Source of the DNA: Pseudomonadota bacterium
GTDB lineage: Bacteria; Pseudomonadota; Gammaproteobacteria; Thiotrichales; Thiotrichaceae
Length of the DNA: 64,000 bases
Assembly: GCA_039797965.1 (NCBI GenBank)
Contig: JBDKGX010000001.1
Location: 18,563-82,562 of the forward strand
Reading direction: 5' to 3'
Every line of letters begins with the position of its first letter. Positions within the stretch are counted from its first letter, which is position 1. A program made the translations under genes and the position numbers. This document shows, piece after piece, positions 1 to 64,000 of the stretch. The notes beneath the pieces are model-generated. The model searched no databases. It was not told the DNA's origin and saw only the letters and a list, made by a program, of their open reading frames with translations.

Positions 1-190
1 TGTCTGGATTGGGGCGGGTAGGATTTTGCAAATTAGCTAAAATTTGTTGCACTAATTTTAGCAGCTGATTAAGAGAGTTGACTCCCAATCCTGAAGTTCC
101 GAAATTCACATTCGATGAATTGGATGTATTGTTAATAAAAGGATTAGAGGGGTAAGTACGAGTACTTGCATTAATAGCATTCAAATTCAT
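1..190 (-). CDS. 5' part of a leaderless Ser/Asn-rich protein (runs off the window edge; absent from ORF track)
   Basis: ATG at 190 preceded by GAGAG; 63 open codons to the edge: MNLNAINASTRTYPSNPFINNTSNSSNVNFGTSGLGVNSLNQLLKLVQQILANLQNPTRPNPD. Confidence 0.7.
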   Translation of the reverse strand, partial: MNLNAINASTRTYPSNPFINNTSNSSNVNFGTSGLGVNSLNQLLKLVQQILANLQNPTRPNPD

Positions 191-444
191 GATGATCTCT
201 CGCATAGTGTGATGCCTATAACACAAGTGTAAGAAGCGCGTGAGGAAAAAAGAGTAGTATCAGACTAGGGGACAGGTTTTGGCGTTAGATGTGACTGCGA
301 TATGTTTTTTAGCAGTTGTAGCACTTGAATTCAGTTTTAGTTAGTCAAAAGTGTATAAATTGATTTATACAATCTAATAATGAGCCCAATTTTCACCAAG
401 TTGTTACAAAATAATTGGGTAATTTAGAAGTTAGATGACCGATC

Positions 445-563
445 AAGTCGTCTTTAGCCAACTTTCTCTTGTAATGTTGCCTAAAATAGGACAAAGTCGG
501 TTATGTCAGACTTTAACTATAACGATGAGGACTTAAGTGTATGATGTCGGATATTCACGACAT
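445..563. promoter_or_regulatory. Three putative antitoxin operator palindromes, consensus AWGTCG-N8-CGACWT
   Basis: aagtcg-N8-caactt (445-464), aagtcg-N8-agactt (494-513), atgtcg-N8-cgacat (544-563); starts 49-50 bp apart, at the 5' end of the hipB-like gene. Confidence 0.55.
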
Positions 564-804
564 TCGTCCTAAGCGTCGTGCGCATGCTTCTTGTGGTCAA
601 GATCCTATGTTGCTAGAGCTAGGCGATAAAGTGCGTGCGTCACGTTGTGCAATTGGAATGACTCAAGAAGAATTAGCATTAGTCGCAGGGGTTGGACGCG
701 AATTAGTGATTCAACTCGAAAATGGTAAGCCCGGAGTATCCTTAGGGAAAGCCAGTTTAATATTAACTACGCTAGGTCAACGCCTATTAGTAGCAGGGCG
801 GTAA
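541..804 (+). CDS. hipB: HipB-like XRE/HTH antitoxin
   Basis: GMTQEELALVAGVGRELVIQLENGK HTH_3 signature; 1 nt upstream of a HipA kinase; start could be the ATG at 607. Confidence 0.85.
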   Translation: MMSDIHDIRPKRRAHASCGQDPMLLELGDKVRASRCAIGMTQEELALVAGVGRELVIQLENGKPGVSLGKASLILTTLGQRLLVAGR

Positions 805-805
805 G

Positions 806-2050
806 TTGCTACAAATACTCTTTGCAGATCAGCGTGTGGGACGCTTGTGGGATCGGTTTAGAAAGCTCTGTTTTCAATACTCACCAGAGTGGTGTGAAAA
901 TCCTAAAGCTTTTCCTCTATCTCCATTAATGCCGTTAGGTAATACGGTAATTTGTGGCGATATACCCTTATTTTTCTTCGCTAATTTGCTTCCTGAAGGT
1001 AATGTTTTAGATACGATTCTAAAATTACGGCGGTTGCCACGTGGCAAAGTTTATTCGTTATTAGAGGCGTTTGGTGAGGATGCCGCAGGGGCATTTTCTA
1101 TTGTGCCTGATGGTTCTTTGCCAACTCGCGCTTCCTCTTATGTACCCTATTCACTAGAACGACTGCATGCGGATTTAAATCGTCTGGGGGAGCGTTTGCC
1201 TTTATTGGTTCAACATAGCGAATTACGTCTATCCCTAGCAGGAGCACAAAATAAAATACCCGTTCGCTATAAAAACCAGCTGCTTAGTTTACCGCAAGGT
1301 GGAGCATCTTCTACACATATTCTAAAGCCCCCTATTCAACCCACTCATTATTTTCCAGACTCCGTACAAAATGAGGCGTTTTGCCTGCAATTAGCTAAAG
1401 CGAGTGGTTTAAATGTAGCTAATGTTGATTTGCTACATGTACCAGAGCCTGTATTAATGGTAGAGCGTTATGATCGTTTATACAGTGGTGATAATATTGA
1501 GCGCATTCATCAATTAGATTTTTGCCAAATGGCTGGAGTACTTCCTGATCAAAAGTATGAAAAAGATGGGGGACCTGGTTTAAAACAAATTTTTCACTTA
1601 ATTGATCAATGGAGTTCAGTTCCCGCAAAAAATCGTTTACAAGCATTAGATTGGGTGCTGTTTAATTATTTAATGGGTAATGCGGATGCACATGCTAAAA
1701 ATATTTCTATGTTAGTGCATAGTCGTTATCAATTTGAACTAGCCCCTGCGTATGATATTGTTTGTACAGCACTTTATCCTGAGCTAAAAACCCAAATGGC
1801 CATGAATATTGGTGGAGAAGGTAATCCTAAAAAACTCCAAACCAAACATTGGCAACGACTAGCGCAAGATTTAGGGGTAAACCCAGTACTGCTAAGTAAG
1901 CGTGCTAAACAATTAGCACAACGTATGGATATGTGTGTACCCGTGGCGGCACGTCAATTAGATTTAACGATGCATCCTATTATGGGTAAGATTTATGCAG
2001 TATTGCAAGAGCGAGCCTCTGATTTAGAAACGGCTCTTGCCGGACTGTAA
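806..2050 (+). CDS. hipA: HipA-family Ser/Thr kinase toxin with N-terminal Couple_hipA domain
   Basis: FFANLLPEG, SLAGAQNK, HILKP, VERYDR, GNADAHAKN, LAPAYD motifs; TTG start. Confidence 0.92.
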   Translation: MLQILFADQRVGRLWDRFRKLCFQYSPEWCENPKAFPLSPLMPLGNTVICGDIPLFFFANLLPEGNVLDTILKLRRLPRGKVYSLLEAFGEDAAGAFSIVPDGSLPTRASSYVPYSLERLHADLNRLGERLPLLVQHSELRLSLAGAQNKIPVRYKNQLLSLPQGGASSTHILKPPIQPTHYFPDSVQNEAFCLQLAKASGLNVANVDLLHVPEPVLMVERYDRLYSGDNIERIHQLDFCQMAGVLPDQKYEKDGGPGLKQIFHLIDQWSSVPAKNRLQALDWVLFNYLMGNADAHAKNISMLVHSRYQFELAPAYDIVCTALYPELKTQMAMNIGGEGNPKKLQTKHWQRLAQDLGVNPVLLSKRAKQLAQRMDMCVPVAARQLDLTMHPIMGKIYAVLQERASDLETALAGL

Positions 2051-2052
2051 TG

Positions 2053-2625: not shown

Positions 2626-2893
2626 TGAGTCACTGGCTGACCCTTGCTAAGTTACCTAGGATGATGACAGTAAGCAAATAAATATGTGTTGCATACTGCT
2701 GTTTTTGCAAGCCGCGACCATTATTTAATATAATGATTAAATAAGTTTTACTTTTTTATGTTTACAGTATTTCAAAAATTAGGCTGTATTAACTAAATTA
2801 AGTTTAGAATTTAATCAAAAGTGTTTGTAATTTAGTAATATTGCGTTTTATCATCTTAACACTAAGATTGTTAATGCTTAGCTTAATATTTGA

Positions 2894-3118: not shown

Positions 3119-3174
3119 GATTAAATACTTTAGTAAGGTGGCTGTAAATACAACCACTTACCAGATTATTTTGC

Positions 3175-3966: not shown

Positions 3967-4029
3967 AAGTACTCCTTAAAAATTTTCAATGCTAATCAAA
4001 CGCCAAAGTATAGCGATTTTGCTAACCGA

Positions 4030-6213: not shown

Positions 6214-6255
6214 TCCATACCCTGAGGGCAAGCCCTAATTAAATTATTATTAAAG

Positions 6256-7482
6256 TTAGATTGCAGAACCTAATTGGAAGATTGGCAAGTACATTGCGAT
6301 AATCAATCCACCGACTAATACCCCCAGTACTGCCATAATCAATGGTTCAATTTGCTTAGCTAAATTGTCAACTAAATTATCCACTTGCTCTTCATAATAG
6401 TCAGCTGCTTTGCCTAGCATGTCTTCTAATCGACCTGATTCCTCTCCAATTCTTGTCATTTGTAGTACTAGACTTGGGAAGACTTGAGCCGTTTGCATAG
6501 CAATATTGAGTTGCACACCTTTAGAGGTATCATCTTTGATACGCAAAGTGGCATCTCGATAAACCGCATTACCTGTGGCACCCGATACGGCATCCATGGC
6601 TTCTACGACAGGAACGCCAGCCGCAAACATGGTGGATGAAGTACGGCAATAACGAGCAATTGCAGAAAGGTTTAAAATATTTCCCACAATAGGAAATTTT
6701 AAGGCGACTCGATCAACCCCATCAGCGAATACTTTAGAACGTCGTTTAAAGTCCAAGAAAGCATAGATGCTCAAAATAATTCCACCGAGTGGCCAATACC
6801 AATTAGCTTGCAGCCATTCAGAGAGACTGATCACCCAGAGCGTAAAAGCCGGTAATTCGGCACCAAAGCTTGAAAACACTTCTTTAAACTGTGGAATAAC
6901 GAAAATCAACATAATTGCTGAAACCACCACCGCCGCGATGATAACTATAATGGGGTACATCAATGCTTTTTTGACTTTAGCTTTAGTAGCTTCGGTTTTT
7001 TCTTTATAAAGAGCTACTTTATTTAACATGTTTTCCAACGTACCTGCTTGCTCACCCGCTTTAATAAGGTTGACAAATAATGAGTCAAAGTACTTGGGAT
7101 GATGGCTAAGAGCATCGCCAAAGGTAGAGCCGGTCTCAACATCGCGCTTAATAGCTTTGATTAAATTAGACATTGCAATGTTATCACCACTATTAGCTAC
7201 CATTTCAAGAGCTTGCACCATCGGTACTCCAGAGCTCATCATGGTAGTCATTTGTCTAGCAAACTGTGCAATATGGATAGATTTAATACTAGGCGGAATC
7301 AGCGGTACTGGTTTTTTATAAATGCGTGTCGGATTAATTCCTTGACGACGTAAGTTTGCACGTAACAAGTTAGCATTCAAAGCAGGACTTTCACCTTTAA
7401 TTTTGACGCCATTCTTGTTAGTACCTTCCCACATGAAAACACGAGGCTCAGGTACTTTCTGATTAGTGTGAATCGTTGCCAT
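6256..7482 (-). CDS. pilC: Type IV pilus platform protein (T2SSF family)
   Basis: FARQMTTMMSSGVP, GEQAGTLE, GEESGRLE, AMYLPIF. Confidence 0.96.
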   Translation of the reverse strand: MATIHTNQKVPEPRVFMWEGTNKNGVKIKGESPALNANLLRANLRRQGINPTRIYKKPVPLIPPSIKSIHIAQFARQMTTMMSSGVPMVQALEMVANSGDNIAMSNLIKAIKRDVETGSTFGDALSHHPKYFDSLFVNLIKAGEQAGTLENMLNKVALYKEKTEATKAKVKKALMYPIIVIIAAVVVSAIMLIFVIPQFKEVFSSFGAELPAFTLWVISLSEWLQANWYWPLGGIILSIYAFLDFKRRSKVFADGVDRVALKFPIVGNILNLSAIARYCRTSSTMFAAGVPVVEAMDAVSGATGNAVYRDATLRIKDDTSKGVQLNIAMQTAQVFPSLVLQMTRIGEESGRLEDMLGKAADYYEEQVDNLVDNLAKQIEPLIMAVLGVLVGGLIIAMYLPIFQLGSAI

Positions 7483-7613
7483 ACATCGCCATTGTTTTTT
7501 ATAAATTTTCGCCGATGATACCAAAAAATTTATTTTTCTTATGATTTAAGCGATAAAAGGCTTCAAAGCTACAGAAAGTAGTTATTATTATAGGTTTAAT
7601 CAGTAGGTTATTA

Positions 7614-9011
7614 TCAGTTTGGCCTAATTAGTATACCATTTTGCCAAAAACGGGGGTGTGAGGCGCCGAGAGCTAATAGGTCAGGATATAACCATTGATA
7701 AGTAGTAATAACGGTAAGTACTAAAATAGGCGCATATAAAATTACTGCCCAATATTTATTAATATTAAAGCGTAGAGTATCAGGTGTCCACGATACCCAC
7801 AGGGCATTAGCTAAACCTAGCATTAAGCATAAGTATATCAAGCTGACAGGCATTACAATAATACCATCTACCATACTCACCGCTAAGGCAGAGCTAATAG
7901 AAGCACTTATAGGGAATGCTAACAGATTTCTTTCTGGGGGGGTTAAGAATAAAAGTTTTTTCCAAGAAAGGGCTAAATACACGAGTAATGTAAAAATTAA
8001 AAAAGCCATAATACCACCCCATTCAGCAAGAATCTGTAAGGGCATATTATGAGGATGTGCAACTCCAGTATAGGTACCCTCAAGAGCAAGCATCATGGGG
8101 CCAACTCCAAAATAAGGATTTTCTAGAAAAACCCTTAAAGTAATTAACCAAATCTCTAAACGACCGCTAGAGTTAGTCATATCTCTACCTATGTTTTGCA
8201 TTAATAACGTAGTGTTATCTATATCGAAACTATAGGGGATTATGAAAACCATAGTTATGTAGATTACTAACGCAGCTAACATATTAATAATATTTACTTT
8301 AAAGTATTGTTTTGCTAGTTGAGGTACAAGCCAGTAAATACTTAATAAACTAAAAAGTATTCCTAGGATGAATGCTCGAGTACCGCTTAACAGCACTAAA
8401 CCAGTGCTTAAAATAGTCACTGTCCACATCAGCGATTTATATTTTGCTTGAGGATGGGTGCTGATAAATGCCAAGATAAAAGGAATAGTCCAAGAAATAA
8501 ACTGTGCATAAAATCTTATATTACTAAAACCATCAATAATGATATCCCTATCAAGTACTGATTGGTGAGCTATCACAATAACATAGTTAACCAATGATCT
8601 TACTATATAAATAAGATTTAAAAGCGTGAAGGTGAGAACAGTTTTATAAATGTACTCAGAGTTAATCTCGGCTTTAAAAGAAAGTACTATTGATAGTATG
8701 CTAAAAAATAATAAAAACTCAATTCCAGACCAGAGAGGTAGTGGAGACAGTAGTGTGCTGATAAGTCCTAATAGTGAAAATAATATGAAGCTAGCTATCT
8801 GTAGCATGGATAGCTTTAAGTCAATCAGTAAGTTATAACCAAGTATACTAAAAATTAATATACTTAAAAAACGTTGTGAGTCATGATAGCTAGCTGTAGT
8901 AGTGAAAGGATAAACAGTTAATAAGATTAAACTTAATAGTGTTATAGAAAAACAGTTAGGTTTTTGAATAATATTATTAGTTGCTACTTTAGTCTTTTGT
9001 AACACGCTCAA
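7614..9011 (-). CDS. O-antigen ligase (Wzy_C) family polytopic membrane protein, probable pilin O-oligosaccharyltransferase
   Basis: Many TM segments; GFSNIRF, SGTRA, SSGRLEIW, GVGP, HPHN motifs; lies inside the pil cluster; start uncertain (overlaps pilB end). Confidence 0.75.
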   Translation of the reverse strand: MSVLQKTKVATNNIIQKPNCFSITLLSLILLTVYPFTTTASYHDSQRFLSILIFSILGYNLLIDLKLSMLQIASFILFSLLGLISTLLSPLPLWSGIEFLLFFSILSIVLSFKAEINSEYIYKTVLTFTLLNLIYIVRSLVNYVIVIAHQSVLDRDIIIDGFSNIRFYAQFISWTIPFILAFISTHPQAKYKSLMWTVTILSTGLVLLSGTRAFILGILFSLLSIYWLVPQLAKQYFKVNIINMLAALVIYITMVFIIPYSFDIDNTTLLMQNIGRDMTNSSGRLEIWLITLRVFLENPYFGVGPMMLALEGTYTGVAHPHNMPLQILAEWGGIMAFLIFTLLVYLALSWKKLLFLTPPERNLLAFPISASISSALAVSMVDGIIVMPVSLIYLCLMLGLANALWVSWTPDTLRFNINKYWAVILYAPILVLTVITTYQWLYPDLLALGASHPRFWQNGILIRPN

Positions 9012-10758
9012 CTTCCTCTAGAGTGGTTAGTCCAGCACGAATCTTATTTAAACCAGATTGACGTAAATCTAAAATTCTTTCTTTTTGAGCCTGATCTGCA
9101 ATATCCATGGAGTTACCGCCGTCCATTACCATTCTTCCCATTGTTTGGGATATAGGCATTACTTGGTAAATACCCACACGGCCTTTATAGCCATTAGAGC
9201 AAGCATCACACCCAATGGCTTTAAAGATTTTTAAAGTACTTAATTCATCCTCTTTAAATCCTAGTTTAGTGAGAGCTTCTTTAGGAATATCTGCGGGTTT
9301 CTTGCATTTTTCACACAAGCGTCGGGCTAAGCGTTGCGCAATAATAAGATGTACAGAGGTAGCGATATTAAAAGGAGCAACGCCCATATTCATTAAACGA
9401 GTTAAAGCTTCTGGTGCACTGTTAGTATGTAGGGTGGATAAAACTAAATGCCCTGTTTGAGCCGCTTTAATAGCAATTTCGGCAGTTTCTAAATCACGAA
9501 TCTCACCCACCATAATGACATCAGGGTCTTGACGTAAAAAAGCCCGTAATGCATCCGCAAAAGTTAGCCCGACTTTAGCATTAACATTGACTTGATTAAC
9601 GCCGGGCATATTAATTTCGGCGGGATCTTCAGCGGTAGAGATATTAACTTCTGGCGTATTAAGCATGCCTAAGCCAGTGTAAAGAGTGACAGTTTTACCA
9701 CTACCTGTAGGCCCCGTAACTAGAATCATGCCATCAGGTTTTGCTAATGCCGCCAAAAAATCAGCTTTTTGTTTCGCCTCAAAACCTAGTTTATCGACTC
9801 CTAATGTTGCATTAGAGGAGTCCAAAATCCGCATTACTACTTTTTCGCCATAAAGTACTGGCAATGTATTAACACGAAAGTCGATATTTTTTTCATTTTT
9901 TAAAGTAATACGAATCCGACCATCTTGAGGAACTCGGCGCTCAGAAATATTCATTTTAGCCATGACTTTAAGGCGCGCGACTAGTTTGGTGGCAATATCA
10001 ATAGGTGGGGTGGCAATAACTTGCAAAATACCATCTATACGAAAGCGTATTCTCAGGGTTTTTTCATAGGGTTCGATATGAATATCAGAAACTTTGGAAG
10101 TAATAGCATGTACTAATAATTTATCGACGAAAGAAACAATCTCGACTTCTTCGCCTTCATTTTTAGCACGTAACTCTTGGGTATCTAGCGCAATATTTTG
10201 CACAATAGCTTCATTTGAAACCATCATGCCGCTGCTCATGGCTGCCGCGCCATCATCGCCAGCAGCCGCGGCGGCTAAACTTTCACTGTGTTGTAAATAG
10301 CCATTTAGTTTGTTGTATTCGACGAATACAGGGTCAGGTGTTAAACCGGTAGCAAATTTCACATCATCCATATTAGGAAGATGAGTAGGATCAGCTATAC
10401 CTACTAATAACCGTTGCCCCATACGATAAAGTGGCAAGAGATTGAGCCGTTGTTTTTGCTCGTCACTAATAAGGCTCAACACATCAGGGCCAATGATTAG
10501 TGCATCAAGATCAACATAACTCAAACCGTATTCAAGACTGGCAGCTTTTGCTAAAACACTGGGCGGCGCAATCCGCATCTTGATCATCTGCGCCATGATA
10601 GTAATGTGCTCGGCTTTAGCCGTGGTCACTATTTCAATGGCTTGCTCTTCAGTAGCTGCTTTCAGTTTAATAAGTTGGCGAATAAACCCCGGAATTGCAG
10701 GCTTAGCTGAATTCTGATTAGCAGGAAGATTAGCAGAAGTCGTTGGTTTAATAGCCAT
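8989..10758 (-). CDS. pilB: Type IV pilus extension ATPase
   Basis: SDIHIEP, GPTGSGKT, LRQDPDVIMVGEIRD, Zn-binding CxxC pairs. Confidence 0.97.
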   Translation of the reverse strand: MAIKPTTSANLPANQNSAKPAIPGFIRQLIKLKAATEEQAIEIVTTAKAEHITIMAQMIKMRIAPPSVLAKAASLEYGLSYVDLDALIIGPDVLSLISDEQKQRLNLLPLYRMGQRLLVGIADPTHLPNMDDVKFATGLTPDPVFVEYNKLNGYLQHSESLAAAAAGDDGAAAMSSGMMVSNEAIVQNIALDTQELRAKNEGEEVEIVSFVDKLLVHAITSKVSDIHIEPYEKTLRIRFRIDGILQVIATPPIDIATKLVARLKVMAKMNISERRVPQDGRIRITLKNEKNIDFRVNTLPVLYGEKVVMRILDSSNATLGVDKLGFEAKQKADFLAALAKPDGMILVTGPTGSGKTVTLYTGLGMLNTPEVNISTAEDPAEINMPGVNQVNVNAKVGLTFADALRAFLRQDPDVIMVGEIRDLETAEIAIKAAQTGHLVLSTLHTNSAPEALTRLMNMGVAPFNIATSVHLIIAQRLARRLCEKCKKPADIPKEALTKLGFKEDELSTLKIFKAIGCDACSNGYKGRVGIYQVMPISQTMGRMVMDGGNSMDIADQAQKERILDLRQSGLNKIRAGLTTLEEVERVTKD

Positions 10759-10906: not shown

Positions 10907-11338
10907 TTAGGTACCACGGCAAGTAGCTGGACGATATTTTTTGTCTACAGTACCACTTGTACAAGTCCAAGTTACAGAGCCTTTGGTTACATCGGCTGTT
11001 GGTGTCATAATCAAAGTTGCATTATCTGTTACTTTGCTATTATAAGTAATTGTAATTACACCTGATGCACCCACGGCAACACTTTTTACAGCATTACCTT
11101 TAATATCGGTAGCAGCAGCTAAACCAACATCTGCATTGCTTGTAGGTAAGGCGCCACGATCTGCGAAGAATTCAGTAACACCTAATTTTGCAGCACCTGC
11201 CAAACTTAAACCTTCACCCACATGTGAGCGTTTAGTGTAATCTTGGTAAGCAGGTAAAGCGATCGCTGCTAAAATACCGATGATAGCTACAACGATCATC
11301 AACTCGATTAATGTGAAACCTTTTTGTACATTTTTCAT
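10907..11338 (-). CDS. pilA: Type IVa major pilin
   Basis: QKG|FTLIELMIVVAIIGILAAIA class III signal; C-terminal disulfide loop WTC...TCRGT. Confidence 0.96.
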   Translation of the reverse strand: MKNVQKGFTLIELMIVVAIIGILAAIALPAYQDYTKRSHVGEGLSLAGAAKLGVTEFFADRGALPTSNADVGLAAATDIKGNAVKSVAVGASGVITITYNSKVTDNATLIMTPTADVTKGSVTWTCTSGTVDKKYRPATCRGT

Positions 11339-16975: not shown

Positions 16976-18589
16976 ATGCAACGGCGTATAGGGGTACTCA
17001 GCAGTGGTGAGGCGGATTGGTGCAACACCACTGCTGACTATTTACTAAGCACTCATAACCCTAAAACAGTGGCATGGGTGCCTCGGCAAAAAGCCCCAAC
17101 GGTTTTGGGTTTAACCTTAGATGCGCTAGTGTTTGATGCGCATCAAGGTCTAGATAGCAATGCGCTTGCCTTAAGTGCGGGCGCTATTCGTGGCGGTGGA
17201 GTATTGTTACTACTCACCCCTCCCTTAAGTACTTGGACAACGTTTCCAGACCCCGACTATCAACGCTTTATTCCCTATCTTTTTGAAAGTACTCCCCTCA
17301 AAGGGCGTTTCATCCAGCGTTTTATTCAGTGCTGGCAAACTTGTTCGGCTATTCATTGGCTCAATGAAAGTACTCCTCTCCTATCACCCTTAAAACCTGC
17401 TGAAGGGCTTAACGATGATTGGCAGTGGACGGCTGAGCAAAGCCAAGTACTTGATCAACTACAAAGCCATCAAGGTGTTAGTGTATTACTCGCAGATCGG
17501 GGACGAGGTAAGTCAACTATATTGGGGGCATTGGCTGCACAATTAAGTACTCAAGCTTTAACCGTCCTGATTACGGCACCCCGTAAAAGTGCTATTCAAG
17601 CATTAGAAACCGAGTACTTTAAAACGCAAACTTCATCTTTAAACTTTTTGCCACCGGATGAGTTACTACAACTCTTGCCTCAACTAGATGTACTCATTGT
17701 GGATGAGGCGGCGACCATTCCATTACCACTATTAATGCAAATGCAGGCAAAGTATTCACGAGTGATTTACTCCACGACGGTACAGGGCTATGAGGGGAGC
17801 GGTCGCGGTTTTATTTTAAAGTTTAAAAAATTATTGCAAGAGCAGCACAGTAATTTACAAGTACTTCACCTAACTAAACCTGTGCGTTGGGATGATGACG
17901 ATATTTTAGAAGATTTATTAAAGAAGTCATTATTATTAGGGCAAAGTACTTCAAGCAATACTAGTACTTTGTTTAATTCAAAGATTACTGTTAATCATCG
18001 AGTACTTTCACCCGATGAGTTACTGAATAATGAAGTGCTCTTGCAAAAAGTATTTTTATTATTAGTCAATGCTCATTATCAAACGCGCCCGTCTGATTTA
18101 AGGCAGTTATTCGATGCACCTAATATTTCTATTCATATTTTAGAGCAAAATCATGAAATATTAGCAGTAGCGTTATTATCACGTGAGGGTGGTTTTGATG
18201 CTGAAATGACGCAATTAGTATTTGAAGGAAAACGTCGACCACAGGGGCATTTACTACCCCAAACGTTAACATGGCATTCTAAAATTTCACGAGCCGCCGA
18301 GTTAACTGGGGAGCGTGTAATGCGGATCGCTGTAGCAGATGAATGCCAAGGACAGGGGTTAGGTAAACAATTGGTTACGTATTTAATCCAGTATGCACAA
18401 CAGCAAAAAGTGGATTATATAGGTGTCAGTTATGCGTCGACCCCAGAATTACTTCAGTTCTGGGGGCAATTAGGTTTTGAGTTAATTCGCAAAGGCTTTA
18501 AACGCGATAAAGCAAGTGGGAGTTATGCGGCTGTGCAAGTTTTAAAGCTAAGTACTCGTGCTCAACAAGTACTTAAACTAAATCATTAA
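16976..18589 (+). CDS. tmcA: tRNA(Met) cytidine acetyltransferase, short form
   Basis: ADRGRGKS, VDEAA, STTVQGYEGSGRGF, AHYQTRPSDL, GNAT RIAV...QGQGLG. Confidence 0.85.
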   Translation: MQRRIGVLSSGEADWCNTTADYLLSTHNPKTVAWVPRQKAPTVLGLTLDALVFDAHQGLDSNALALSAGAIRGGGVLLLLTPPLSTWTTFPDPDYQRFIPYLFESTPLKGRFIQRFIQCWQTCSAIHWLNESTPLLSPLKPAEGLNDDWQWTAEQSQVLDQLQSHQGVSVLLADRGRGKSTILGALAAQLSTQALTVLITAPRKSAIQALETEYFKTQTSSLNFLPPDELLQLLPQLDVLIVDEAATIPLPLLMQMQAKYSRVIYSTTVQGYEGSGRGFILKFKKLLQEQHSNLQVLHLTKPVRWDDDDILEDLLKKSLLLGQSTSSNTSTLFNSKITVNHRVLSPDELLNNEVLLQKVFLLLVNAHYQTRPSDLRQLFDAPNISIHILEQNHEILAVALLSREGGFDAEMTQLVFEGKRRPQGHLLPQTLTWHSKISRAAELTGERVMRIAVADECQGQGLGKQLVTYLIQYAQQQKVDYIGVSYASTPELLQFWGQLGFELIRKGFKRDKASGSYAAVQVLKLSTRAQQVLKLNH

Positions 18590-32580: not shown

Positions 32581-33477
32581 ATGAGTACTTTACCCCAACA
32601 CGTCAAAATCGTAGAAGTAGGCGCTCGTGATGGTTTGCAAAACGAGCCTACTGCCGTACCTGTGGAAGTCAAAATCGCTTTGGTCGAAAAGTTGGTCGAT
32701 GCAGGTTTGTCAGTGGTGGAGGTGGGCAGTTTTGTTTCGCCCAAATGGGTGCCACAAATGGCGGGTAGCGGTGAGGTTTATCACGGTATTCAAAAGCGTG
32801 AAGGAGTCAGCTATCCCATGCTAGTTCCCAATGCTAAAGGCATGGAGGGCGCACTGGCAGCGCGAGTCAGGGAAATTGCGATTTTTGCCGCCGCTTCTGA
32901 AGCGTTTACCCAGAAGAATATTAATTGCAGCATCAGTGAGAGTTTAGATCGCTTTCATACGGTGATGGAGCAAGCCAAAGCGCATGATATTAAAGTGCGT
33001 GGCTATGTATCGTGTGTATTGGGTTGTCCCTATGAGGGTGAGATTGCATTATCGAAAGTAGCGGAAGTGGCCAGTACTTTGTATCAAATGGGCTGCTACG
33101 AAATCTCACTGGGCGACACGATTGGTGTAGGTACTCCTTTAAAGGCTCAACGGATGGTTGACGCGGTGGCGCAAGATGTTCCCATTGAAAAGCTCGCCGC
33201 GCATTTCCACGACACTTATGGGCAAGGCTTAGCCAATCTGTTTGCGGTGATGCAATTAGGTGTGTCGGTGATTGATAGCTCGGTGTCGGGTTTAGGGGGC
33301 TGTCCATATGCAAAAGGGGCGAGTGGTAATGTAGCGACTGAAGATGTCCTTTATATGCTCAAGGGTTTAGGGATTGAGACGGGTGTTGATTTAGGCAAAG
33401 TACTGGAGGCAGGGACATTTATATCTGATTTTCTAGGGCGAAAACCTGCCTCGAAGGTGGGTAAAGTACTGATTTAA
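32581..33477 (+). CDS. liuE: Hydroxymethylglutaryl-CoA lyase
   Basis: [32 protein letters not shown]. Confidence 0.95.
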
Positions 33478-33491
33478 TAAGATAAGTACTT

Positions 33492-34604
33492 TTATGCGGT
33501 AGCGTGTTGAGTACTTAAGTGTTCGTTTTCTAATAAAAAGTCAGCTAAAGCAAGAAAATCCTGACGTGGATAGCAGCGCCCCGCTACATTGAGAAACTCC
33601 AACTTTGAATTTTCACCAAAGTGCTTGAGTAGGTTACTTTCTCGAATCGCTACCGTGTCCGTGGGAATCAGTTGGAAATTCGGATCACCTACTATTTTAT
33701 TTAATAGGGTCTTAATCACCGACATTAATCTAATCGAGATAGAAGACGGTTCTGTTTTAAAGTTATTAACCAGCACAAAGATTTTGGCCTCTTTATTAAT
33801 TGCTCGGATTTGCTGATAGCTACGATTAAGTACTTCGGCATTTTGCCCAATCGATAAGGGCGATAACACCACAGGGCAAATAAAAATTTCAGCTTCACGC
33901 ATGATTTTTTCAGGGTTCAATACGAAAGCAGGCGAGCAATCAGCAACCACAATATCATATTGTTGTTTGACATTATTTAACCAGTCTTTTTCTTTAAATA
34001 CTTGTAACTCATAAGTATTGCCCGTTTTTTGATTGGGAATCTTTAGGCTGTCAGCAGAGGTCAAAAGATGCAGATTACATTCAGGGTCAATATCCAATAA
34101 AGCAACATTTTTACCGCCTAGTGCCAAAGCACCTGCTAAATGAGCGCTGACAGTGGTTTTGCCTACTCCACCTTTGGCGGTAAAAATAGCAATTTTCACG
34201 GGTTCTTTAGGTTGAGGGGCTTTAGGCAAGGTCACATTGGAATCGGTATTAAATTTAATAGTATTTTTTTGATGATCGTACTCACCTAAAAATAGCTTTT
34301 TCTTGCCGTCACTTAAGGCTAATGCATGTGAGGAGTCGGTAAAACCATTGAGTGATACAATAATGCCTTTTTCAAATTTACTTTCCTCACAAAACTCTAA
34401 AAAGCGCCCTACTGTATTAGCAGGTACTTTCTTTTTCCAAGCCTTTACTTGGACAGGAATAGAGGTACCGTTTTTCTTCATAATAAAGTCAAAACCGGGT
34501 TCATTTTGACGATCATTATCAATGACTTCATACCCATTGCTACGAAATAACGCTTGGATATGTTGTTCAAAGCCGAGGGAGTCCCATGAGTTTGGCATAG
34601 ACAT
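33492..34604 (-). CDS. Mrr-type restriction endonuclease domain fused to a ParA/Soj-type ATPase
   Basis: N-term FEQHIQALFRSNGY...GFDF...VQVK...GFT; C-term KGGVGKTT, DIDPECN, DCSP. Confidence 0.8.
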   Translation of the reverse strand: MSMPNSWDSLGFEQHIQALFRSNGYEVIDNDRQNEPGFDFIMKKNGTSIPVQVKAWKKKVPANTVGRFLEFCEESKFEKGIIVSLNGFTDSSHALALSDGKKKLFLGEYDHQKNTIKFNTDSNVTLPKAPQPKEPVKIAIFTAKGGVGKTTVSAHLAGALALGGKNVALLDIDPECNLHLLTSADSLKIPNQKTGNTYELQVFKEKDWLNNVKQQYDIVVADCSPAFVLNPEKIMREAEIFICPVVLSPLSIGQNAEVLNRSYQQIRAINKEAKIFVLVNNFKTEPSSISIRLMSVIKTLLNKIVGDPNFQLIPTDTVAIRESNLLKHFGENSKLEFLNVAGRCYPRQDFLALADFLLENEHLSTQHATA

Positions 34605-39430: not shown

Positions 39431-39676
39431 ATCTAACTCGTATTTTTTAATTTATAGAGATAAATGCTATTTTAACCTTATTCTTTAATGAAAATACAAT
39501 GATTTTTGCTAACTCAATCTTAGCTAAGAGTATAGAAGATTAGGTCTAATTAACATCGTCATTGAAGACAAAATATAACTATAAATCACAAAGGCATGTG
39601 ACGACGCTGTCATTGAACGTTAGAATAGTACTCTTTCTATAAATTTTTGTACTGATTGGTTTTAGGAGTCGATTCC

Positions 39677-41527
39677 ATGCCCGTTTACCGTTCCCGTACC
39701 TCAACAGGTGGTCGCAATATGGCAGGCGCTCGTGCGCTGTGGCGTGCCACTGGCATGAAAGATGAGGATTTTAGTAAACCTATTATTGCGATTGCGAACT
39801 CCTTTACTCAATTTGTACCAGGTCATGTGCATTTGAAAGATTTGGGGCAATTGGTCGCGCGTGAAATTGAAGCCGCAGGTGGCGTGGCGAAAGAGTTTAA
39901 TACCATTGCTATTGATGACGGTATCGCAATGGGACACAGCGGTATGCTGTATTCCTTACCTTCGCGCGAAGTCATTTCCGATGCGGTCGAGTATATGGTC
40001 AATGCCCATTGTGCCGATGCGATTGTATGTATTTCTAACTGCGACAAAATAACCCCCGGTATGCTCAATGCCGCCATGCGCCTTAACATTCCTGTGGTGT
40101 TTGTGTCAGGTGGCCCCATGGAGTCGGGTAAGGCTTTAATTTCGGGTAAAACCGTTAAGCTTGACTTGATTGATGCAATGGTTTCAGCCGCTAATCCTAA
40201 AGAAACTGACGAGAACGTTGCCAAGATGGAGCGTTCAGCATGCCCAACGTGTGGCTCCTGTTCGGGGATGTTTACGGCTAACTCGATGAACTGTTTAACC
40301 GAAGCCTTAGGTTTGAGTCTACCTGGCAATGGTTCGTTGCTAGCTACTCATGCGGATCGTGAAGAACTTTTCAAGCGTGCGGGACGTGTAGCGGTTGAAC
40401 TCTGTAAGCGTTATTACGAACAAGATGATGACTCTGTATTGCCACGTAATGTTGCGACCTTTGAAGCCTTTGAAAACGCCATGAGTTTGGATATTGCCAT
40501 GGGCGGCTCTACTAATACTGTACTGCACTTATTAGCAGCAGCGCGTGAAGGTAATATCAATTTCACAGTAGCTGATATTGATCGTCTAAGCCGTAAAGTA
40601 CCTAATCTTAGTAAAGTGGCACCCGCTACCCAGCTTTATCATATGGAAGATGTACACCGTGCAGGCGGTATTATGGGTTTACTGGGCGAGTTAGATCGGG
40701 CAGGATTGATTCATCGTGAGTGTAAAACGGTACATAGTGCGACATTAGGCGATGCTTTAGATCAATGGGATATTATGCGTAATCCTAGTGAAGCGGTACA
40801 AACCTTCTTTAAAGCCGCTCCCGGTAATGTTCCTACTCAAGTAGCTTTTTCGCAAAACAAGCGTTGGGATAGTCTCGATAATGACCGTGCGAATGGCTGT
40901 ATTCGCAGTAAAGAGCATGCGTACTCTCAAGACGGTGGCTTAGCCGTATTGTTTGGCAATATTGCTGAAGAAGGTTGTGTGGTGAAAACGGCGGGTGTTG
41001 ATGCGAGTATTCTAACGTTTTCAGGGCCTGCTCGTATTTTTGAATCGCAAGATGATGCAGTCGCCGCGATTTTAAATGATCAAATTCAAGCGGGTGATGT
41101 CGTACTCATTCGTTATGAAGGCCCACGTGGTGGCCCTGGTATGCAAGAGATGCTTTATCCGACGTCATATTTGAAATCAAAAGGTTTGGGTAAGGTGTGC
41201 GCCTTGATTACCGATGGGCGTTTTTCTGGCGGTACTTCAGGATTATCCATTGGTCACGTATCACCGGAAGCTGCCGAAGGGGGCGCCATTGGTTTAGTGC
41301 AAGAAGGCGATATGATCGATATTGATATTCCTAACCGCACTATGAATTTACGGGTTGAGATGGCAGAGCTGGCTAAACGTCGTGATGAGATGAATACCAA
41401 AGGCAATAAAGCGTGGAAACCTGTTAATCGTGAGCGCTATGTCAGCGCTGCACTAAAAGCCTATGCCGCTATGACCACCTCAGCGTCACATGGCGCGGTG
41501 CGTGATGTATCGCAATTGGAGCGCTAA
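39677..41527 (+). CDS. ilvD: Dihydroxy-acid dehydratase
   Basis: [37 protein letters not shown]; AGGAG RBS before 39677. Confidence 0.97.
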
Positions 41528-41529
41528 GC

Positions 41530-42030
41530 GTGAATGAAATAGATGAATTACCCGATGAGTTTAGCCGCCAAAAGCGTAAAAACGAAGTCGAGGCGTGGCA
41601 ACAAGCAGGTGAGCGCTTAATCAAATTAAGCGACCCACAACTTAAGCAACTTGATTTGCCGGAGGAAATTTATGATGCAGTGGTTGAGGCTAAACGCTTA
41701 ACCGCTAATGGTGCCATTCGCCGCCAACGCCAATATATCGGGCGTTTAATGCGTGAAGATGAAGACCCTGATGGCATTGTAGCTCGTCTACAGGCATTGG
41801 AAGGTAATGCCCGTAATCAAGTAGCTAAAATGCATGTGATTGAGCGTTGGCGTGATCGTCTAATAGCTGACGAAAATGTTTTGGGTGAGTTGATTGAAAT
41901 GTATCCTAATGCAGATATGCAACGGTTACGTTCATTAATTCGTAACGCTCATAAAGAAATTGCCAACAATAAGCCACCTAAAAGTAGTCGAGAATTATTC
42001 GCAGCATTACGTGAATTAATTTTGGATTAA
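41530..42030 (+). CDS. yjgA: Ribosome biogenesis factor YjgA/DarP
   Basis: SRQKRK, RRQRQYIGRLMR, ERWRDRL, LRSLIRNA..E. Confidence 0.9.
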   Translation: MNEIDELPDEFSRQKRKNEVEAWQQAGERLIKLSDPQLKQLDLPEEIYDAVVEAKRLTANGAIRRQRQYIGRLMREDEDPDGIVARLQALEGNARNQVAKMHVIERWRDRLIADENVLGELIEMYPNADMQRLRSLIRNAHKEIANNKPPKSSRELFAALRELILD

Positions 42031-42039
42031 CTCTAAAGA

Positions 42040-42076
42040 TCAAGCCACCTAGATTAATATACCTTAGGTGGCTTGA
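42040..42076 (+). terminator. Hairpin/terminator after yjgA
   Basis: tcaagccaccta / taggtggcttga, 12-bp perfect stem. Confidence 0.7.
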
Positions 42077-42347
42077 ATCATAGCCTTTTATCTCATTAAA
42101 CTAATAAATAAAACCTTTTGTCTTAGTGAGTTTAGATTTCGTCATATAAGTAATCGCCCACTTATACTAGGTTCTTTAGTATGAAATGGATGGGTTAATA
42201 AAAAGTTGGAAACCTTTTATTAGTTACCAATCGTTAATCATATATATAGAACTGCATATTGTTTGATAATGTATTTTATTTATACCTATAAATATCTTGT
42301 TAATAAATGTAAGTAAACATTATCAATGTTGTATAAGGAGATATTCC

Positions 42348-42899
42348 ATGAGTTTAAATATCAACGGCTTTTCAAGCAGTAATGCTTATCCTATTACGAA
42401 TAATTTTACGACTTCGTATAGTAGTCCCTTCTTAGGATTTAATACTACAGGCTATTGGCCTGTGGGTAATTACAACTCTGCTTTGTCTAGTATTGCGGGC
42501 AATACGCTAAGCAGTATTTCAGGTTATCCATCGTTTACCTACACGGCTCCAACGTTCTCTTATACCCCTGTTGAATTGCCTGATGCGAGTTTGCTAATGG
42601 AGCAATCCTCGAATCAGTCGAGTCAGGAAGGTAATGGTTTGTTTGGTTCATTGTTAGGTGGGCTTGCACAAGGTGTACACTCTTTAGCTGAATATACGGT
42701 TGGAGCTTTGGGTCTACAATCGATCTTTGGTCCGCTGGTTGATGACCCAATTATTCACCCATTGCTATGGGATCCGTTATCTCGTATTACAGGCTATGAT
42801 GTAAGTAAGCATCCTAGTGGTGTTGATGACGTGTCAGATCCACTTGGGATACGGGGTGGGGATAGCACTGATGGTGGTCTTTTAGGTGGACTATTATAA
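42348..42899 (+). CDS. Leaderless Ser/Gly-rich, Cys-free hypothetical protein
   Basis: AAGGAG RBS then MSLNINGFSSSNAYP...; LFGSLLGGL and GGLLGGLL motifs. Confidence 0.75.
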   Translation: MSLNINGFSSSNAYPITNNFTTSYSSPFLGFNTTGYWPVGNYNSALSSIAGNTLSSISGYPSFTYTAPTFSYTPVELPDASLLMEQSSNQSSQEGNGLFGSLLGGLAQGVHSLAEYTVGALGLQSIFGPLVDDPIIHPLLWDPLSRITGYDVSKHPSGVDDVSDPLGIRGGDSTDGGLLGGLL

Positions 42900-43084
42900 T
42901 ATAAGCCTGTCAAAAACAGCTTAATTAATATTAGGGCTTTACAGGAGTCCATTGATAAAGTGGGCTCTTGTTTATTCATTATTTTATAGGTTTGAGTAAA
43001 ATAAAGTTTTTTATTAAGAAGTACTCTTCTGCATTAAAGAAATTCAATTTTTTATTTGATAGGTTTAGTAAAATTACTAGACTT

Positions 43085-49468: not shown

Positions 49469-50728
49469 TTACGCTGGACGTTTAGCGGGCAGGGGAGGTA
49501 AGTCTAAATCCTCCTCGTCCTCCATTGGCTCTAACTCTAAATTATCAAATAACGGATGGTTGAGCGGGTTAATTACACCATCCTCAATCAGCGGTTTATG
49601 TTTTTTCGGTTCGGGTTCTTGGGAGGCGTTATTAGCTTCGGAGGAGATAATAGTCTCTGATTTGACACCACTACTGGATAAATTGATTTTGACCTTGAGG
49701 TTATTGGGGGAGTCAGCATTGCGAATGGCATCCTCGAGTGAAATTCGTCCAGCGGTATAAAGTTTAAATAAGTGCGAGTCAAAGGTTTGCATTCCCAGTT
49801 CCTCAGATTTTTCCATTTGCTCTTTAATGGCGTGGGTATCCCCTTTTAAAACCATGTCTCGCACGATCGGCGTACCTAATAAAATCTCAATCGCGGCTAC
49901 CCTCTTACCGTCTACGGAGGGTATTAAGCGTTGGGAAACAAACGCTTTTAGGTTTAAGGATAAATCCATTAATAACTGAGCACGACGTTCTTCGGGGAAG
50001 AAGTTAATAATACGATCAAGGGCTTGGTTGGCATTATTGGCGTGTAGGGTTGAGACGCATAAGTGTCCGGTTTCGGCGAAGGCTAAGGCATGCTCCATGG
50101 TTTCGCGTGAGCGAATTTCACCAATGAGAATCACATCAGGTGCTTGGCGTAAGGTGTTTTTGAGTGCATCCTCGTAACTGTCCGTATCTACCCCGACCTC
50201 CCGTTGATTGACGATACAGCGTTTGTGGCTATGCACAAACTCCACAGGGTCTTCAATGGTAATAATATGACCACTAGTAGTCTGGTTACGATGATCAATT
50301 AAAGCTGCTAAGGATGTTGATTTACCTGACCCAGTCCCCCCTACGAATAAAATCAGCCCCCGTTTTTCAGTAATAATATCTTTTAAAATCGGGGGTAGAC
50401 CGAGATTATTGATAGAAGGGATTTCACTACGAATGTAACGAATCACCATCGCTATCGAATGACGTTGTTTAAAGATATTAACGCGAAAACGTCCGACTCC
50501 TTCCTCATGTACTGCCAAGTTCATTTCAGGCTTTTGTTCAAACTGATTACGTTGCTCCTCATTCATAACGTCATACGCCATATTTTTGAGGTCATCAGGT
50601 GTTAAGGGCGTTTTGCTAATTAGCTTTAATGAACCTTGAAATTTAGCAGCAGGGGGCGCCCCAACGGTTAAATATAAATCAGAGCCATCATGGGTTGCCA
50701 AAATGCGTAAGTAGTCTGAAATCAGCAT
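49469..50728 (-). CDS. pilU: PilT/PilU-family pilus retraction ATPase (PilU-like)
   Basis: GSDLYL, GGTGSGKSTS, LRQAPDVILIGEIR, TLHANNANQALDRI, GMQTFD. Confidence 0.85.
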   Translation of the reverse strand: MLISDYLRILATHDGSDLYLTVGAPPAAKFQGSLKLISKTPLTPDDLKNMAYDVMNEEQRNQFEQKPEMNLAVHEEGVGRFRVNIFKQRHSIAMVIRYIRSEIPSINNLGLPPILKDIITEKRGLILFVGGTGSGKSTSLAALIDHRNQTTSGHIITIEDPVEFVHSHKRCIVNQREVGVDTDSYEDALKNTLRQAPDVILIGEIRSRETMEHALAFAETGHLCVSTLHANNANQALDRIINFFPEERRAQLLMDLSLNLKAFVSQRLIPSVDGKRVAAIEILLGTPIVRDMVLKGDTHAIKEQMEKSEELGMQTFDSHLFKLYTAGRISLEDAIRNADSPNNLKVKINLSSSGVKSETIISSEANNASQEPEPKKHKPLIEDGVINPLNHPLFDNLELEPMEDEEDLDLPPLPAKRPA

Positions 50729-61311: not shown

Positions 61312-61357
61312 GTATTCAAGTACTCGGTTCAGTGTTTAAAGAGTCGAGTACTTAGTC

Positions 61358-62527
61358 TTATTTATGTAGTTCAGTTGGCAAAAATAGCTCAATAGCATTA
61401 TTTAAAAACTGCCAACCCCACTCGCTGGGCTGAATCCAGTCTTCAGTAATGTGCAGCAACTGTTGCTGTTGTGCTTGTTTGAGTACTTCACTAATAAGTA
61501 TTTCACTGGCTCCCGTTCGTTCAGTAAATAAACTACGTTTAAACCCCTGCTTGAGTCGTAACGCATTCAGCATAAACTCAAAACCTAAATGCTCTGGTTC
61601 TAATACGGTGATTGAGTGGCGTAGAGGAGGGCTTTGAGTGCTTTGCATATACAGCTCAGGCTGGCGGGCTTTTTGATAGCGAGTAATCACTAATTGCCCG
61701 TTTTGATTGAGCTGCGAAAGCTTACCATGTGCTCCTGCTCCAATCCCTAGATAATCCCCAAACTCCCAATAATTACGATTATGGCGACATTGCTTGCTGG
61801 CTTGCGCGTAAGCGGATACTTCATATTGCTCAAACCCTGCTTGAGCGAGTACGAGTTGTCCGGCTTGAGCTATATCAGCACTTAAATCATCATCAGGCAA
61901 TTCTGGGGGGAATTTATGAAAGAGAGTATTAGGCTCAAGGGTTAATTGATACCACGATAAGTGACTAGGTTGTAATGCGATGGCTTGGTGAAGATCGGCG
62001 AGCGCTTGTTCTAATGTTTGATTAGGTAAGGCAAACATAAGGTCTAGATTAAAGTTATCAAATCCTGCTGCCTGAGCAATATGAGCTGCTTTGAGGGCTT
62101 CTGCTTGATTATGGATTCGACCCAGTACTTTGAGATGGATAGGGTCAAAACTTTGAATGCCTATTGATAAGCGATTAATACCTAACTCTCTATATTCCTT
62201 AAATTTAGCTTGTTCAAAAGTGCCCGGATTGGCTTCTAAAGTGATCTCAATCGAGGGGCGCATGGGGATAAGAGCACGAATACCTGACAGTAATTGCTCT
62301 AAAGCATTCGGACTAAATAAACTAGGTGTACCGCCACCAATAAAAATACTATCTAAACGTCTACCCCAAACACTAGGTAACTCTTGAGCTAAATCAGCTA
62401 GTAATGCATTAATGTAATGCGTTTCAGGTAGTTGATTGGGTACGGCGTGAGAGTTGAAGTCACAATAGGGACACTTGCGAATACACCAAGGAATATGAAT
62501 ATAAAGGGCTAGTGGGATGGCTTGCAT
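61358..62527 (-). CDS. hemW: Radical SAM heme chaperone
   Basis: YIHIPWCIRKCPYCDFN, GGGTPS, HNRNYW, YLGIGAGAHG. Confidence 0.93.
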   Translation of the reverse strand: MQAIPLALYIHIPWCIRKCPYCDFNSHAVPNQLPETHYINALLADLAQELPSVWGRRLDSIFIGGGTPSLFSPNALEQLLSGIRALIPMRPSIEITLEANPGTFEQAKFKEYRELGINRLSIGIQSFDPIHLKVLGRIHNQAEALKAAHIAQAAGFDNFNLDLMFALPNQTLEQALADLHQAIALQPSHLSWYQLTLEPNTLFHKFPPELPDDDLSADIAQAGQLVLAQAGFEQYEVSAYAQASKQCRHNRNYWEFGDYLGIGAGAHGKLSQLNQNGQLVITRYQKARQPELYMQSTQSPPLRHSITVLEPEHLGFEFMLNALRLKQGFKRSLFTERTGASEILISEVLKQAQQQQLLHITEDWIQPSEWGWQFLNNAIELFLPTELHK

Positions 62528-62611
62528 AGCCTGTTAAGTACTCAATAAAAACAAGTCAGAAGGCTAGCATGTTGAGTCATTAAAGAAAAATAGCAAATAT
62601 ATTTAAAAGAA

Positions 62612-62641
62612 ATCCCGCTATTATTTTAGTAATAGCGGGAT
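62612..62641 (-). terminator. Terminator after the repeat protein gene
   Basis: atcccgctatta / taatagcgggat followed by ttctttt on the minus strand. Confidence 0.8.
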
Positions 62642-62683
62642 ACTAACACTTAGAGGATCATAGTCTGTGTTAGGTTAAAACCA

Positions 62684-64000
62684 TTACAGCATGCTAGTTA
62701 GGCTAGCAATAAGGTCTGGATTAGTCGTCATCAGATCACCCAATAAAGTGCCTGCTGTTGCTTCATCAACATTCATCATGCTGGCAATCATAGACACTAA
62801 TTGAGCATTTTGTGAACCACTGCTAGAGGATGAGCCACTAGTGCTAGTACTAGTTCCTGTAGATGCACTAGTACTTGACGAACCTGTAGCCGCGGGTGAG
62901 CTAGATACTGGTGTGGTAGTTGATGTACTGGGTGTAGACCAAGAACTAGAAGTCGTACTACCAGTACCTGTTACTGTTCCAGTAGGAGTAGTCGATGCGC
63001 TGCCTGTGCTAGAGGTGCTAGAACCACTGCTACTAGAGCTGGTGCTAGGGACAGAAGAACCACTAATAACGGTAGTAGATTGTTGTTGCGAGCTAGTATT
63101 GGTGCTAGAGCCTTGTGCTAAGCCACTGAAAATCATATTGCCACTAACATTACCAGAGCCAAGGCTGCTCACTAAGCTATTCATTAATGCTGTTAGGTCT
63201 GCTGCACTAATACCTAAAGCAGTAAGCTTAGTCATGATATCATTCATAGACATGCCAGAATTCAGCATTTGAATGATTTGATTACCTAAATCATTAGCGT
63301 TGACTGCTCCTGAACTGGTATTGATAGTACTGGTAGTGCCAGTAGTGCTAGTACCAGTTGAAGACGTGGTAGAGCCTGTACCAGTCGATGTAGTACCGGT
63401 AGAGCCTGTATTACCTGTGACAGCGGCTAAAATAGCATCGACATCGCTAGCTTGGAGTCCACCATTAATTAAAGTAGTACGAATGTCTGTAATACTCATC
63501 CCCATATTAACCAAGTTATTAATCATACTGGTAATTTGGGCAGGTACTTGAGTAGTGCCAGTACCGGTTGGGCTAGGAGTAGGGGCTGGTGAAGTACTAG
63601 GTGCTGGAGTAGGAGCAGGTGAAGTACTCGGTGCTGGAGTAGGTACCGGTGTTGGAGCAGGTGCAGGGCTAACAGTAGGTGCAGGACTGGAGCCTGTAGA
63701 GCCTGTATTACCTGTGACAGCGGCTAAAATAGCATCGACATCACTAGCTTTCAGTCCACCATTGATTAAGGTAGTACGAATGTCTGTAATACTCATCCCC
63801 ATATTAACCAAGTTATTAATCATACTGGTAATTTGGGCAGGTACTTGAGTAGCGCCAGTACCTGTTGGGCTAGGAGTAGGGGCTGGTGAAGTACTCGGTG
63901 CTGGCGTAGGAGCTGGTGAAGTACTAGGCGCTGGAGTAGGTACTGGTGTTGGAGCAGGTGCAGGACTAACAGTAGGTGCAGGACTAACAGTAGGTGCAGG
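62684..64000 (-). CDS. Ser/Thr/Pro/Gly-rich protein with repeated ~40-aa helical modules (start lies beyond the window)
   Basis: Frame stays open past 63823 to the edge; module QITSMINNLVNMGMSITDIRTTLINGGLxASDVDAILAAV twice plus a diverged third copy. Confidence 0.8.
   Translation of the reverse strand, partial: PAPTVSPAPTVSPAPAPTPVPTPAPSTSPAPTPAPSTSPAPTPSPTGTGATQVPAQITSMINNLVNMGMSITDIRTTLINGGLKASDVDAILAAVTGNTGSTGSSPAPTVSPAPAPTPVPTPAPSTSPAPTPAPSTSPAPTPSPTGTGTTQVPAQITSMINNLVNMGMSITDIRTTLINGGLQASDVDAILAAVTGNTGSTGTTSTGTGSTTSSTGTSTTGTTSTINTSSGAVNANDLGNQIIQMLNSGMSMNDIMTKLTALGISAADLTALMNSLVSSLGSGNVSGNMIFSGLAQGSSTNTSSQQQSTTVISGSSVPSTSSSSSGSSTSSTGSASTTPTGTVTGTGSTTSSSWSTPSTSTTTPVSSSPAATGSSSTSASTGTSTSTSGSSSSSGSQNAQLVSMIASMMNVDEATAGTLLGDLMTTNPDLIASLTSML
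63399..63985. repeat. Intragenic tandem duplication, period 297 bp (99 aa), with internal 30-bp PAPTPAPSTS-type units
   Basis: agagcctgtattacctgtgacagcggctaaaatagcatcg at 63401 and 63698; near-identity over about 290 bp. Confidence 0.92.

Follow-up and report, generated by a model that had tools for sequence, protein, structure and literature searches.

Graded, oriented preference for AGTACT in a Thiofilum genome and its possible link to DNA uptake

Why does the hexamer AGTACT recur so often, in coding and intergenic DNA alike, along a 64-kb stretch of a bacterial genome? This stretch, here called the window, comprises 64,000 nucleotides (assembly GCA_039797965.1, contig JBDKGX010000001.1, positions 18,563 to 82,562) of a metagenome-assembled genome (MAG) of 2.96 Mb that is 86% complete and divided into 191 contigs. 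Protein sequence assigns the MAG to a wastewater sulfur bacterium of the genus Thiofilum (Thiotrichaceae), its NAD synthase falling into a 90% cluster with proteins of Thiofilum sp. and T. flexile. Thiofilum sp. G001 and T. flexile (G002, near-complete) served as comparison genomes. Genes were called as simple longest open reading frames (ORFs), and 'intergenic' DNA therefore takes in some small genes. We found that a graded, oriented preference fixes and keeps AGTACT, including through amino-acid change.

Copy number and codon-independent enrichment

Exact counting gave 167 copies of AGTACT between 161 and 63925 of the window, where a preliminary description had tallied about 160 by hand. Its expectation of about 20 copies at around 42% GC was also sound, as the zero-order value is 19.6 at a GC content of 42.9%; 100 dinucleotide shuffles gave a mean of 14.6 and a maximum of 25. 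The copies fall in all three reading frames (54/19/64), with a further 30 outside called ORFs, and the counts of 12 in tmcA and four within 33399-33515 were both correct. One-off variants, described as common, were less uniform: across the MAG, GGTACT is mildly enriched (2.0-fold) but AGTGCT is not (1.07-fold). The features of the window that concern the word itself are as follows.

161..63925, no strand: 167 dispersed AGTACT in all three frames and in spacers, preferred context (T)AAAGTACTC / GAGTACTTT(A)
16976..18589, plus strand: tmcA, 12 AGTACT, a weakly constrained gene near saturation
33483..33516, no strand: inverted AGTACT pair (33485, 33510) at a convergent-gene junction, predicted hairpin of -14.6 kcal/mol, z -3.0
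39633..43019, no strand: AGTACT-free 3.4 kb over ilvD, 0 copies
61319..61352, no strand: convergent spacer with the inverted pair AAGTACTCG ... CGAGTACTT, terminator-like predicted hairpin of -16.3 kcal/mol, z -4.6

A genome-wide comparison of observed and expected counts revealed 7,644 copies in the MAG (2.59/kb, or about one per 390 bases), 10.6-fold over a first-order Markov model, so the excess extends beyond the window. AGTACT ranks first among the hexamers of the MAG and is found on all contigs longer than 3 kb, in a genome that avoids most other palindromes. The same AGTACT sites are present in conspecific Illumina contigs (98-99.9% identical), which rules out an assembly artefact.

The earlier argument that no codon pair can explain the excess survived synonymous shuffling, which left AGTACT at 3.7-, 8.6- and 8.1-fold in the three frames; codon or dicodon use is insufficient. 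Spacers hold 4.3 copies per kb, 10.6-fold over expectation. AGTACT is realised in 94% of the synonymous chances at Glu-Tyr-Phe, 83% of those at Lys/Gln-Val-Leu and 45% of those at Ser-Thr, despite TAC and CTN being minority codons. Compared with encodings at least two changes off, the odds of AGTACT were raised 60-350-fold with good flanks and 7-27-fold with poor ones, and one-off words were raised 1.3-4-fold in most contexts. These graded odds, together with the raised one-off words, indicate a binding landscape and not an all-or-none enzyme site.

The preference for AGTACT has altered proteins, with amino-acid changes fixed. Across 280 orthologues, (K/Q/E)VL occurs 257 times in the MAG and 184 times in G001, while the reversed control LV(K/Q/E) is even (112 versus 109). 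Ser-Thr is the top dipeptide of the proteome, with an observed/expected ratio of 1.62 against 1.0-1.2 in relatives. Realisation per chance is nearly binomial across genes (standard deviation of z 1.05), the outliers being mostly low-GC imports, and it is lower in highly expressed genes. AGTACT-free stretches cover ribosomal-protein, dnaA, recA and ilvD genes, mainly because synonymous chances are few there.

Shape, orientation and placement of the site

The description of AGTACT as a palindrome holds for the core only. An orientation-aware fit to 1,214 intergenic sites gave (T)AAAGTACTC as the best site. A model with symmetric flanks was rejected (chi2 146 on 6 degrees of freedom). There were 472 sites of the form AAGTACTC, 267 of AAGTACTT and just 37 of GAGTACTC, which we take to be a SlmA-type flank. 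Over the whole MAG, AAGTACTC reaches 0.84/kb and AAAGTACTC 0.41/kb. Beyond these preferred bases the flanks are non-repetitive.

Placement in spacers depends on how the neighbouring genes are oriented: spacers between convergent genes hold 9.7 copies/kb, tandem spacers 4.4 and divergent ones 3.4. Where two sites lie close together, they tend to be inverted in intergenic DNA (56:19 and 62:22) but not in coding DNA (244:225); in convergent spacers, 69 of the 75 pairs base-pair with each other. Along the G001 chromosome the AGTACT profile is flat, with no origin or terminus pattern, which disfavours the suggested nucleoid-protein site in its position-specific, SlmA- or MatP-type form. Replication-strand bias is slight at most (880:998; a Chi-like control gave 83:38). 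We rejected a Chi, KOPS, SlmA or MatP type of role, there being no strand polarity and no placement specific to origin or terminus, and GAGTACTC being the least favoured flank. Enrichment in T. flexile and the 83:38 skew to the G-rich strand in the MAG make the Chi-like word itself, GGTGGTGG, a candidate Thiofilum Chi.

Realisation is independent of the distance to the nearest site; a within-gene spacing residual arose from the conditioning and was set aside. A role in translation start was likewise rejected: apart from a weak rise at -13 to -6, starts show no excess upstream, and the peaks represent Met-Ser-Thr and TAA-GTACT. AGTACT is missing from recent restriction-modification (R-M) islands and at half-level on a contig with phage-like genes. 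None of 35 CRISPR spacers holds it, with about 2-3 expected at chromosomal density; the MAG has two CRISPR arrays with a 36-bp repeat (C31:19941-21124 and C73:6165-7418).

Distribution in Thiofilum, jumbo phages and Abditibacteriota

Within Thiofilum, AGTACT stands at 1.6-fold over expectation in T. flexile, 2.6-fold in G001, 2.9-6-fold in further contigs, two of them close to G001, and 8-13-fold in a second high-density species with 77% identity to the MAG. Grouped by clade, the enrichment comes to 10-13-fold in the MAG and the second high-density species, 2.5-6-fold in a third clade and 1.6-fold in T. flexile. Two G001 contigs, C6 and C7, are at 1.0-fold. The second high-density species and the MAG have 31 of about 60 sites in common, and silent positions between them are 84% identical inside AGTACT sites and 56% identical outside. 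AGTACT sites of G001 are kept in the MAG at 64%, the median for hexamers being 22%. Judged from these sequence comparisons, the sites are actively kept. Flank preference differs in the second high-density species (T at 33% versus 14%, p 0.0008).

None of 106 other Thiotrichaceae except G001 exceeded 0.36 AGTACT/kb, none of 400 Pseudomonadota lay above about 0.37/kb, and four outgroup samples gave observed/expected ratios of 0.84-1.27. A metagenome scan yielded no further clear AGTACT-rich lineage; the scan of contig databases covers the listed matches and is no census. In our literature search we came across no earlier account of AGTACT iteration. Its iteration thus appears to be undescribed in print and new for a gammaproteobacterial chromosome.

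The same hexamer is iterated in other settings. All the Rak2-like jumbo phages that we tested (GAP32, fHe-Yen9-04, RaK2, Munch, XbC2, EJP2 and Hallingskeid), which are lytic, hold 850-1,313 copies each (2.4-3.8/kb). Enrichment in GAP32 and EJP2 is about 10-fold, in all frames, with flanks CAGTACTG/AAGTACTT; the first 20 kb of GAP32 holds 134 copies, compared with about 45 elsewhere. A viral scan retrieved jumbo-phage contigs with 4-7 AGTACT/kb, and contigs of this phage group have the word within early-promoter-like repeats, with two copies, at a distance of 21 bp, around the -35 and -10 boxes. The Abditibacteriota MAG RYN_269 holds 3,117 copies in 3.1 Mb, with flanks CAAAGTACTTTG. The proposal that the lineage has its own system for creating or selecting AGTACT was therefore right in that the iterated word is real and lineage-specific, and too narrow in that unrelated phages and an Abditibacteriota iterate it too.

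An island of Pseudescherichia vulneris (L190:1838-7529), in a chromosome with 0.11/kb, shows about 9-fold enrichment and encodes a serine recombinase, an HNH protein and an NTPase-like gene product. One of its sites, TAAAGTACTTGCA, resembles the jumbo-phage promoters, and the island is possibly a satellite of jumbo phages.

Candidate mechanisms and known systems

We infer that a sequence-specific reader of AGTACT exists. Among the three mechanisms offered by the preliminary description (an orphan methyltransferase, an uptake signal or a nucleoid-protein site), the uptake signal fits best, and we tentatively favour a drive like that of DNA uptake sequences (DUS). Our preference rests on the terminator pairs, the species dialects, the oriented site, the absence from imports and the intact competence genes. 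Under this mechanism, a DNA-binding protein that prefers AGTACT-centred sites to a graded degree, with an optimum of about TAAAGTACTC, would give alleles with a site a transmission advantage, so that site-creating point mutations would be fixed, and kept where protein function permits. The bias would most likely act when DNA is taken up during natural transformation, where fragments that bear good sites would enter and recombine more often, as in the molecular drive known from the DUS of Neisseria and the uptake signal sequences (USS) of Pasteurellaceae. Sites in terminator stems may have been doubled through hairpin compensation, and the differences among Thiofilum species would reflect shifts in reader strength and flank preference.

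comEC, comEA, dprA, comM, PilE, PilB and PilT are intact in the MAG, and PilE, a further candidate receptor, carries PF16732. Type IV pilus genes, as a candidate uptake machine, and a retraction ATPase gene lie in the window itself.

6256-7524, minus strand: pilC-like, candidate uptake-machine gene
8989-10758, minus strand: pilB, type IV pilus, candidate uptake machine
10907-11338, minus strand: pilin, type IV pilus, candidate uptake machine
49469..50728, minus strand: PilT/PilU-family retraction ATPase

In the window, Pfam also identifies a fusion of a ParA-type ATPase with a stand-alone Mrr-type nuclease domain (33492-34604).

As leading candidate reader we would guess an intact orphan FimT minor pilin encoded beside trkA (C12:19264-19884), whose C-terminal AGRLR contains the GRxR motif. 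Orphan FimTs with GRxR are DNA receptors (PMC8897410), and ComN/PpdA, the predicted USS receptor, is FimT-like (PMC12616744). The FimT of the MAG is 47-49% identical to the G001 and G002 copies, where the genome average is 75-77%, and 61% identical to that of the second high-density species. That Thiofilum holds a third, independently evolved sequence-specific uptake system, in which the reader of an AGTACT-centred word is a pilin of the FimT type, with a strength and flank preference that have shifted between congeners, is a possibility that we regard as doubtful in this full form.

Several observations weigh against uptake as the driver. comEC is intact also in non-enriched relatives and outgroups, and intact competence machinery is therefore not discriminating. 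The divergence of FimT is weak evidence for a reader, as pilins evolve fast; a GRxR FimT is also present in the weakly enriched G001 and G002 and in the motif-poor L535, and characterised FimT binds DNA without sequence preference. We found no literature report of Thiofilum transformability. Spacing of the sites is clustered (coefficient of variation 1.17). recA, mutL, dnaA and dnaB lie in AGTACT-free or AGTACT-poor stretches, largely with few synonymous chances, and these genes thus give no sign of the maintenance-gene bias of DUS. Moreover, DUS and USS are 9-10 bp long and non-palindromic, whereas AGTACT is a 6-bp palindromic core with graded flanks, although its best site is oriented. A Rep-bearing plasmid contig of G001 (C2, assembled about twice over) has 12 unique AGTACT in about 14 kb, or about 4-fold enrichment. 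The main objection comes from the lytic jumbo phages and the Abditibacteriota MAG that iterate this hexamer as well: uptake cannot drive the word in the phages, and tblastn and phmmer searches with GAP32 and EJP2 proteins against the MAG returned housekeeping homologues only and no common reader gene.

A somewhat unlikely alternative is that the reader acts inside the cell, a chromosome-coating, recombination or DNA-protection protein binding AGTACT so that each site is slightly beneficial, with the same logic in jumbo phages and Abditibacteriota. The recurrence of one core, differently flanked each time, in Thiofilum (TAAAGTACTC), phages (CAGTACTG/AAGTACTT) and an Abditibacteriota (CAAAGTACTTTG), which are unrelated settings, would fit such direct selection, as would the indifference of realisation to the distance between sites and the enrichment of some plasmids. 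It is opposed by the absence of a shared gene in the GAP32 and EJP2 searches, by the lack of an origin or terminus pattern, with the SlmA-type flank least favoured, and by the 6-fold range inside one genus, with which an essential structural role sits badly. H-NS was rejected as the reader, since it does not track the trait, and a search for FimT in viral contigs led to no shared reader.

We consider it unlikely that AGTACT (or GTAC) is the target of an orphan methyltransferase and that methylation gives the site an advantage in uptake or mismatch repair, as with the highly iterated palindrome HIP1 or Campylobacter CtsM. The palindromic core would suit a methylase; alternate cyanobacterial HIPs, which appear sporadically, are each paired with a cognate methylase (PMC4390886), HIP1 increases transformation in a way that depends on methylation (PMC13756078) and CtsM does likewise with RAATTY (PMC8627207). 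Our search, which combined five Pfam families in the MAG and three in the congeners with a motif scan and checks of synteny, found in the MAG type I and III enzymes, one split HindIII-like gene and two 5-methylcytosine (5mC) genes in AGTACT-free islands. No cognate AGTACT methylase was detected in the MAG, 86% complete and with specificities not readable from sequence; the unassembled 14% leaves room for one. Nor is any methylase with the same target domain common to the three Thiofilum genomes: the type III Mod that they share has a different target domain in each, the 5mC genes common to G001 and G002 are missing at the syntenic sites of the MAG, the one small N4/N6 enzyme of G001 (L032) is missing at its MAG syntenic site and G002 has none. 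The suggested orphan ScaI-type methyltransferase is thus not supported so far. Graded, oriented flanks spanning 10 bp are also unlike a methylase site, and 2.6 sites per kb without spacing dependence contrast with Elhai's repair model, which reportedly predicts a ceiling near 1/kb.

Among the methyltransferase genes, the split N4/N6 gene of the MAG (C75:10927-11808), presumably a relative of the HindIII family, is interrupted by one TAG. Downstream of ruvB, G002 and G001 encode a 5mC methyltransferase as two overlapping ORFs (249 + 133 amino acids) adjoining a restriction-like gene; the MAG has no counterpart at the syntenic site. GGCC, CCWGG and GGWCC are strongly avoided throughout the MAG, and GGWCC avoidance would fit a 5mC R-M pair on contig C45, if its specificity is as we suppose.

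A functionless mutational or gene-conversion attractor is very unlikely: it would accord with the almost binomial realisation across genes and its decrease in highly expressed ones, but several substitution types would all have to target one word, at 60-350-fold odds and with graded flanks, and amino-acid changes have been fixed. Explanations through biased use of codons, dicodons or amino acids, through a repeat family or through faulty assembly are already refuted, the top rank of Ser-Thr notwithstanding, by the excess left after synonymous shuffles and in spacers, the non-repetitive flanks and the agreement of independent Illumina contigs.

To our knowledge, only two families of bacteria have established sequence-specific uptake words, and what HIP1 does has been under debate for 30 years. 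One genus that spans weak to saturating AGTACT, has dialects in the flanks and includes a cultured type species makes the origin of such words comparable among close relatives; if a FimT does read AGTACT as an uptake word, gain or loss of a DUS could be traced from 1.6-fold in cultured T. flexile to 13-fold in one genus. Why AGTACT has been chosen repeatedly, in jumbo phages and in another phylum, is a separate question. The word also offers a simple binning marker for filamentous wastewater Thiofilum.

AGTACT behaves like a DUS, a USS or a HIP, as a candidate member of either class, and represents a strong new instance of the iterated-word kind. With the DUS of Neisseriaceae (receptor ComP) and the USS of Pasteurellaceae (predicted receptor ComN/PpdA) it shares high copy number, presence in all frames and higher density in spacers (10.1101/2025.10.24.684340, PMC12616744, PMC1939737), as well as a best site with an orientation, terminator-like hairpins formed by inverted pairs, hardly any strand bias, absence from recent imports, species dialects and intact type IV pilus and competence genes. 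About half of DUS and USS lie in predicted terminators (10.1101/2025.10.24.684340). Unlike them, AGTACT has clustered spacing, lacks a maintenance-gene bias, varies 6-fold in strength in one genus and has its core in lytic phages as well. HIP1 (GCGATCGC) and the alternate cyanobacterial HIPs resemble it in palindromic core, density of 1-3/kb, use of all frames, conservation in place between species and sporadic gain within a clade (PMC4390886, PMC5861425, PMC13756078); AGTACT differs in its low GC content (33%, against 75-100% for most known HIPs), asymmetric flanks, occurrence outside cyanobacteria and the lack of a detected cognate methylase. Like the RAATTY word of Campylobacter CtsM, AGTACT is a palindromic hexamer that could be a self tag for uptake (PMC8627207), but the Campylobacter system relies on a conserved orphan N6-methyladenine enzyme of which we found none in the Thiofilum MAG. 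Rak2-like phages and Abditibacteriaceae share the hexamer itself, about 10-fold enriched in phages, in all frames and with synonymous saturation; they differ in their flanks, in the use of the word within phage early promoters and in sharing no detected reader gene with Thiofilum.

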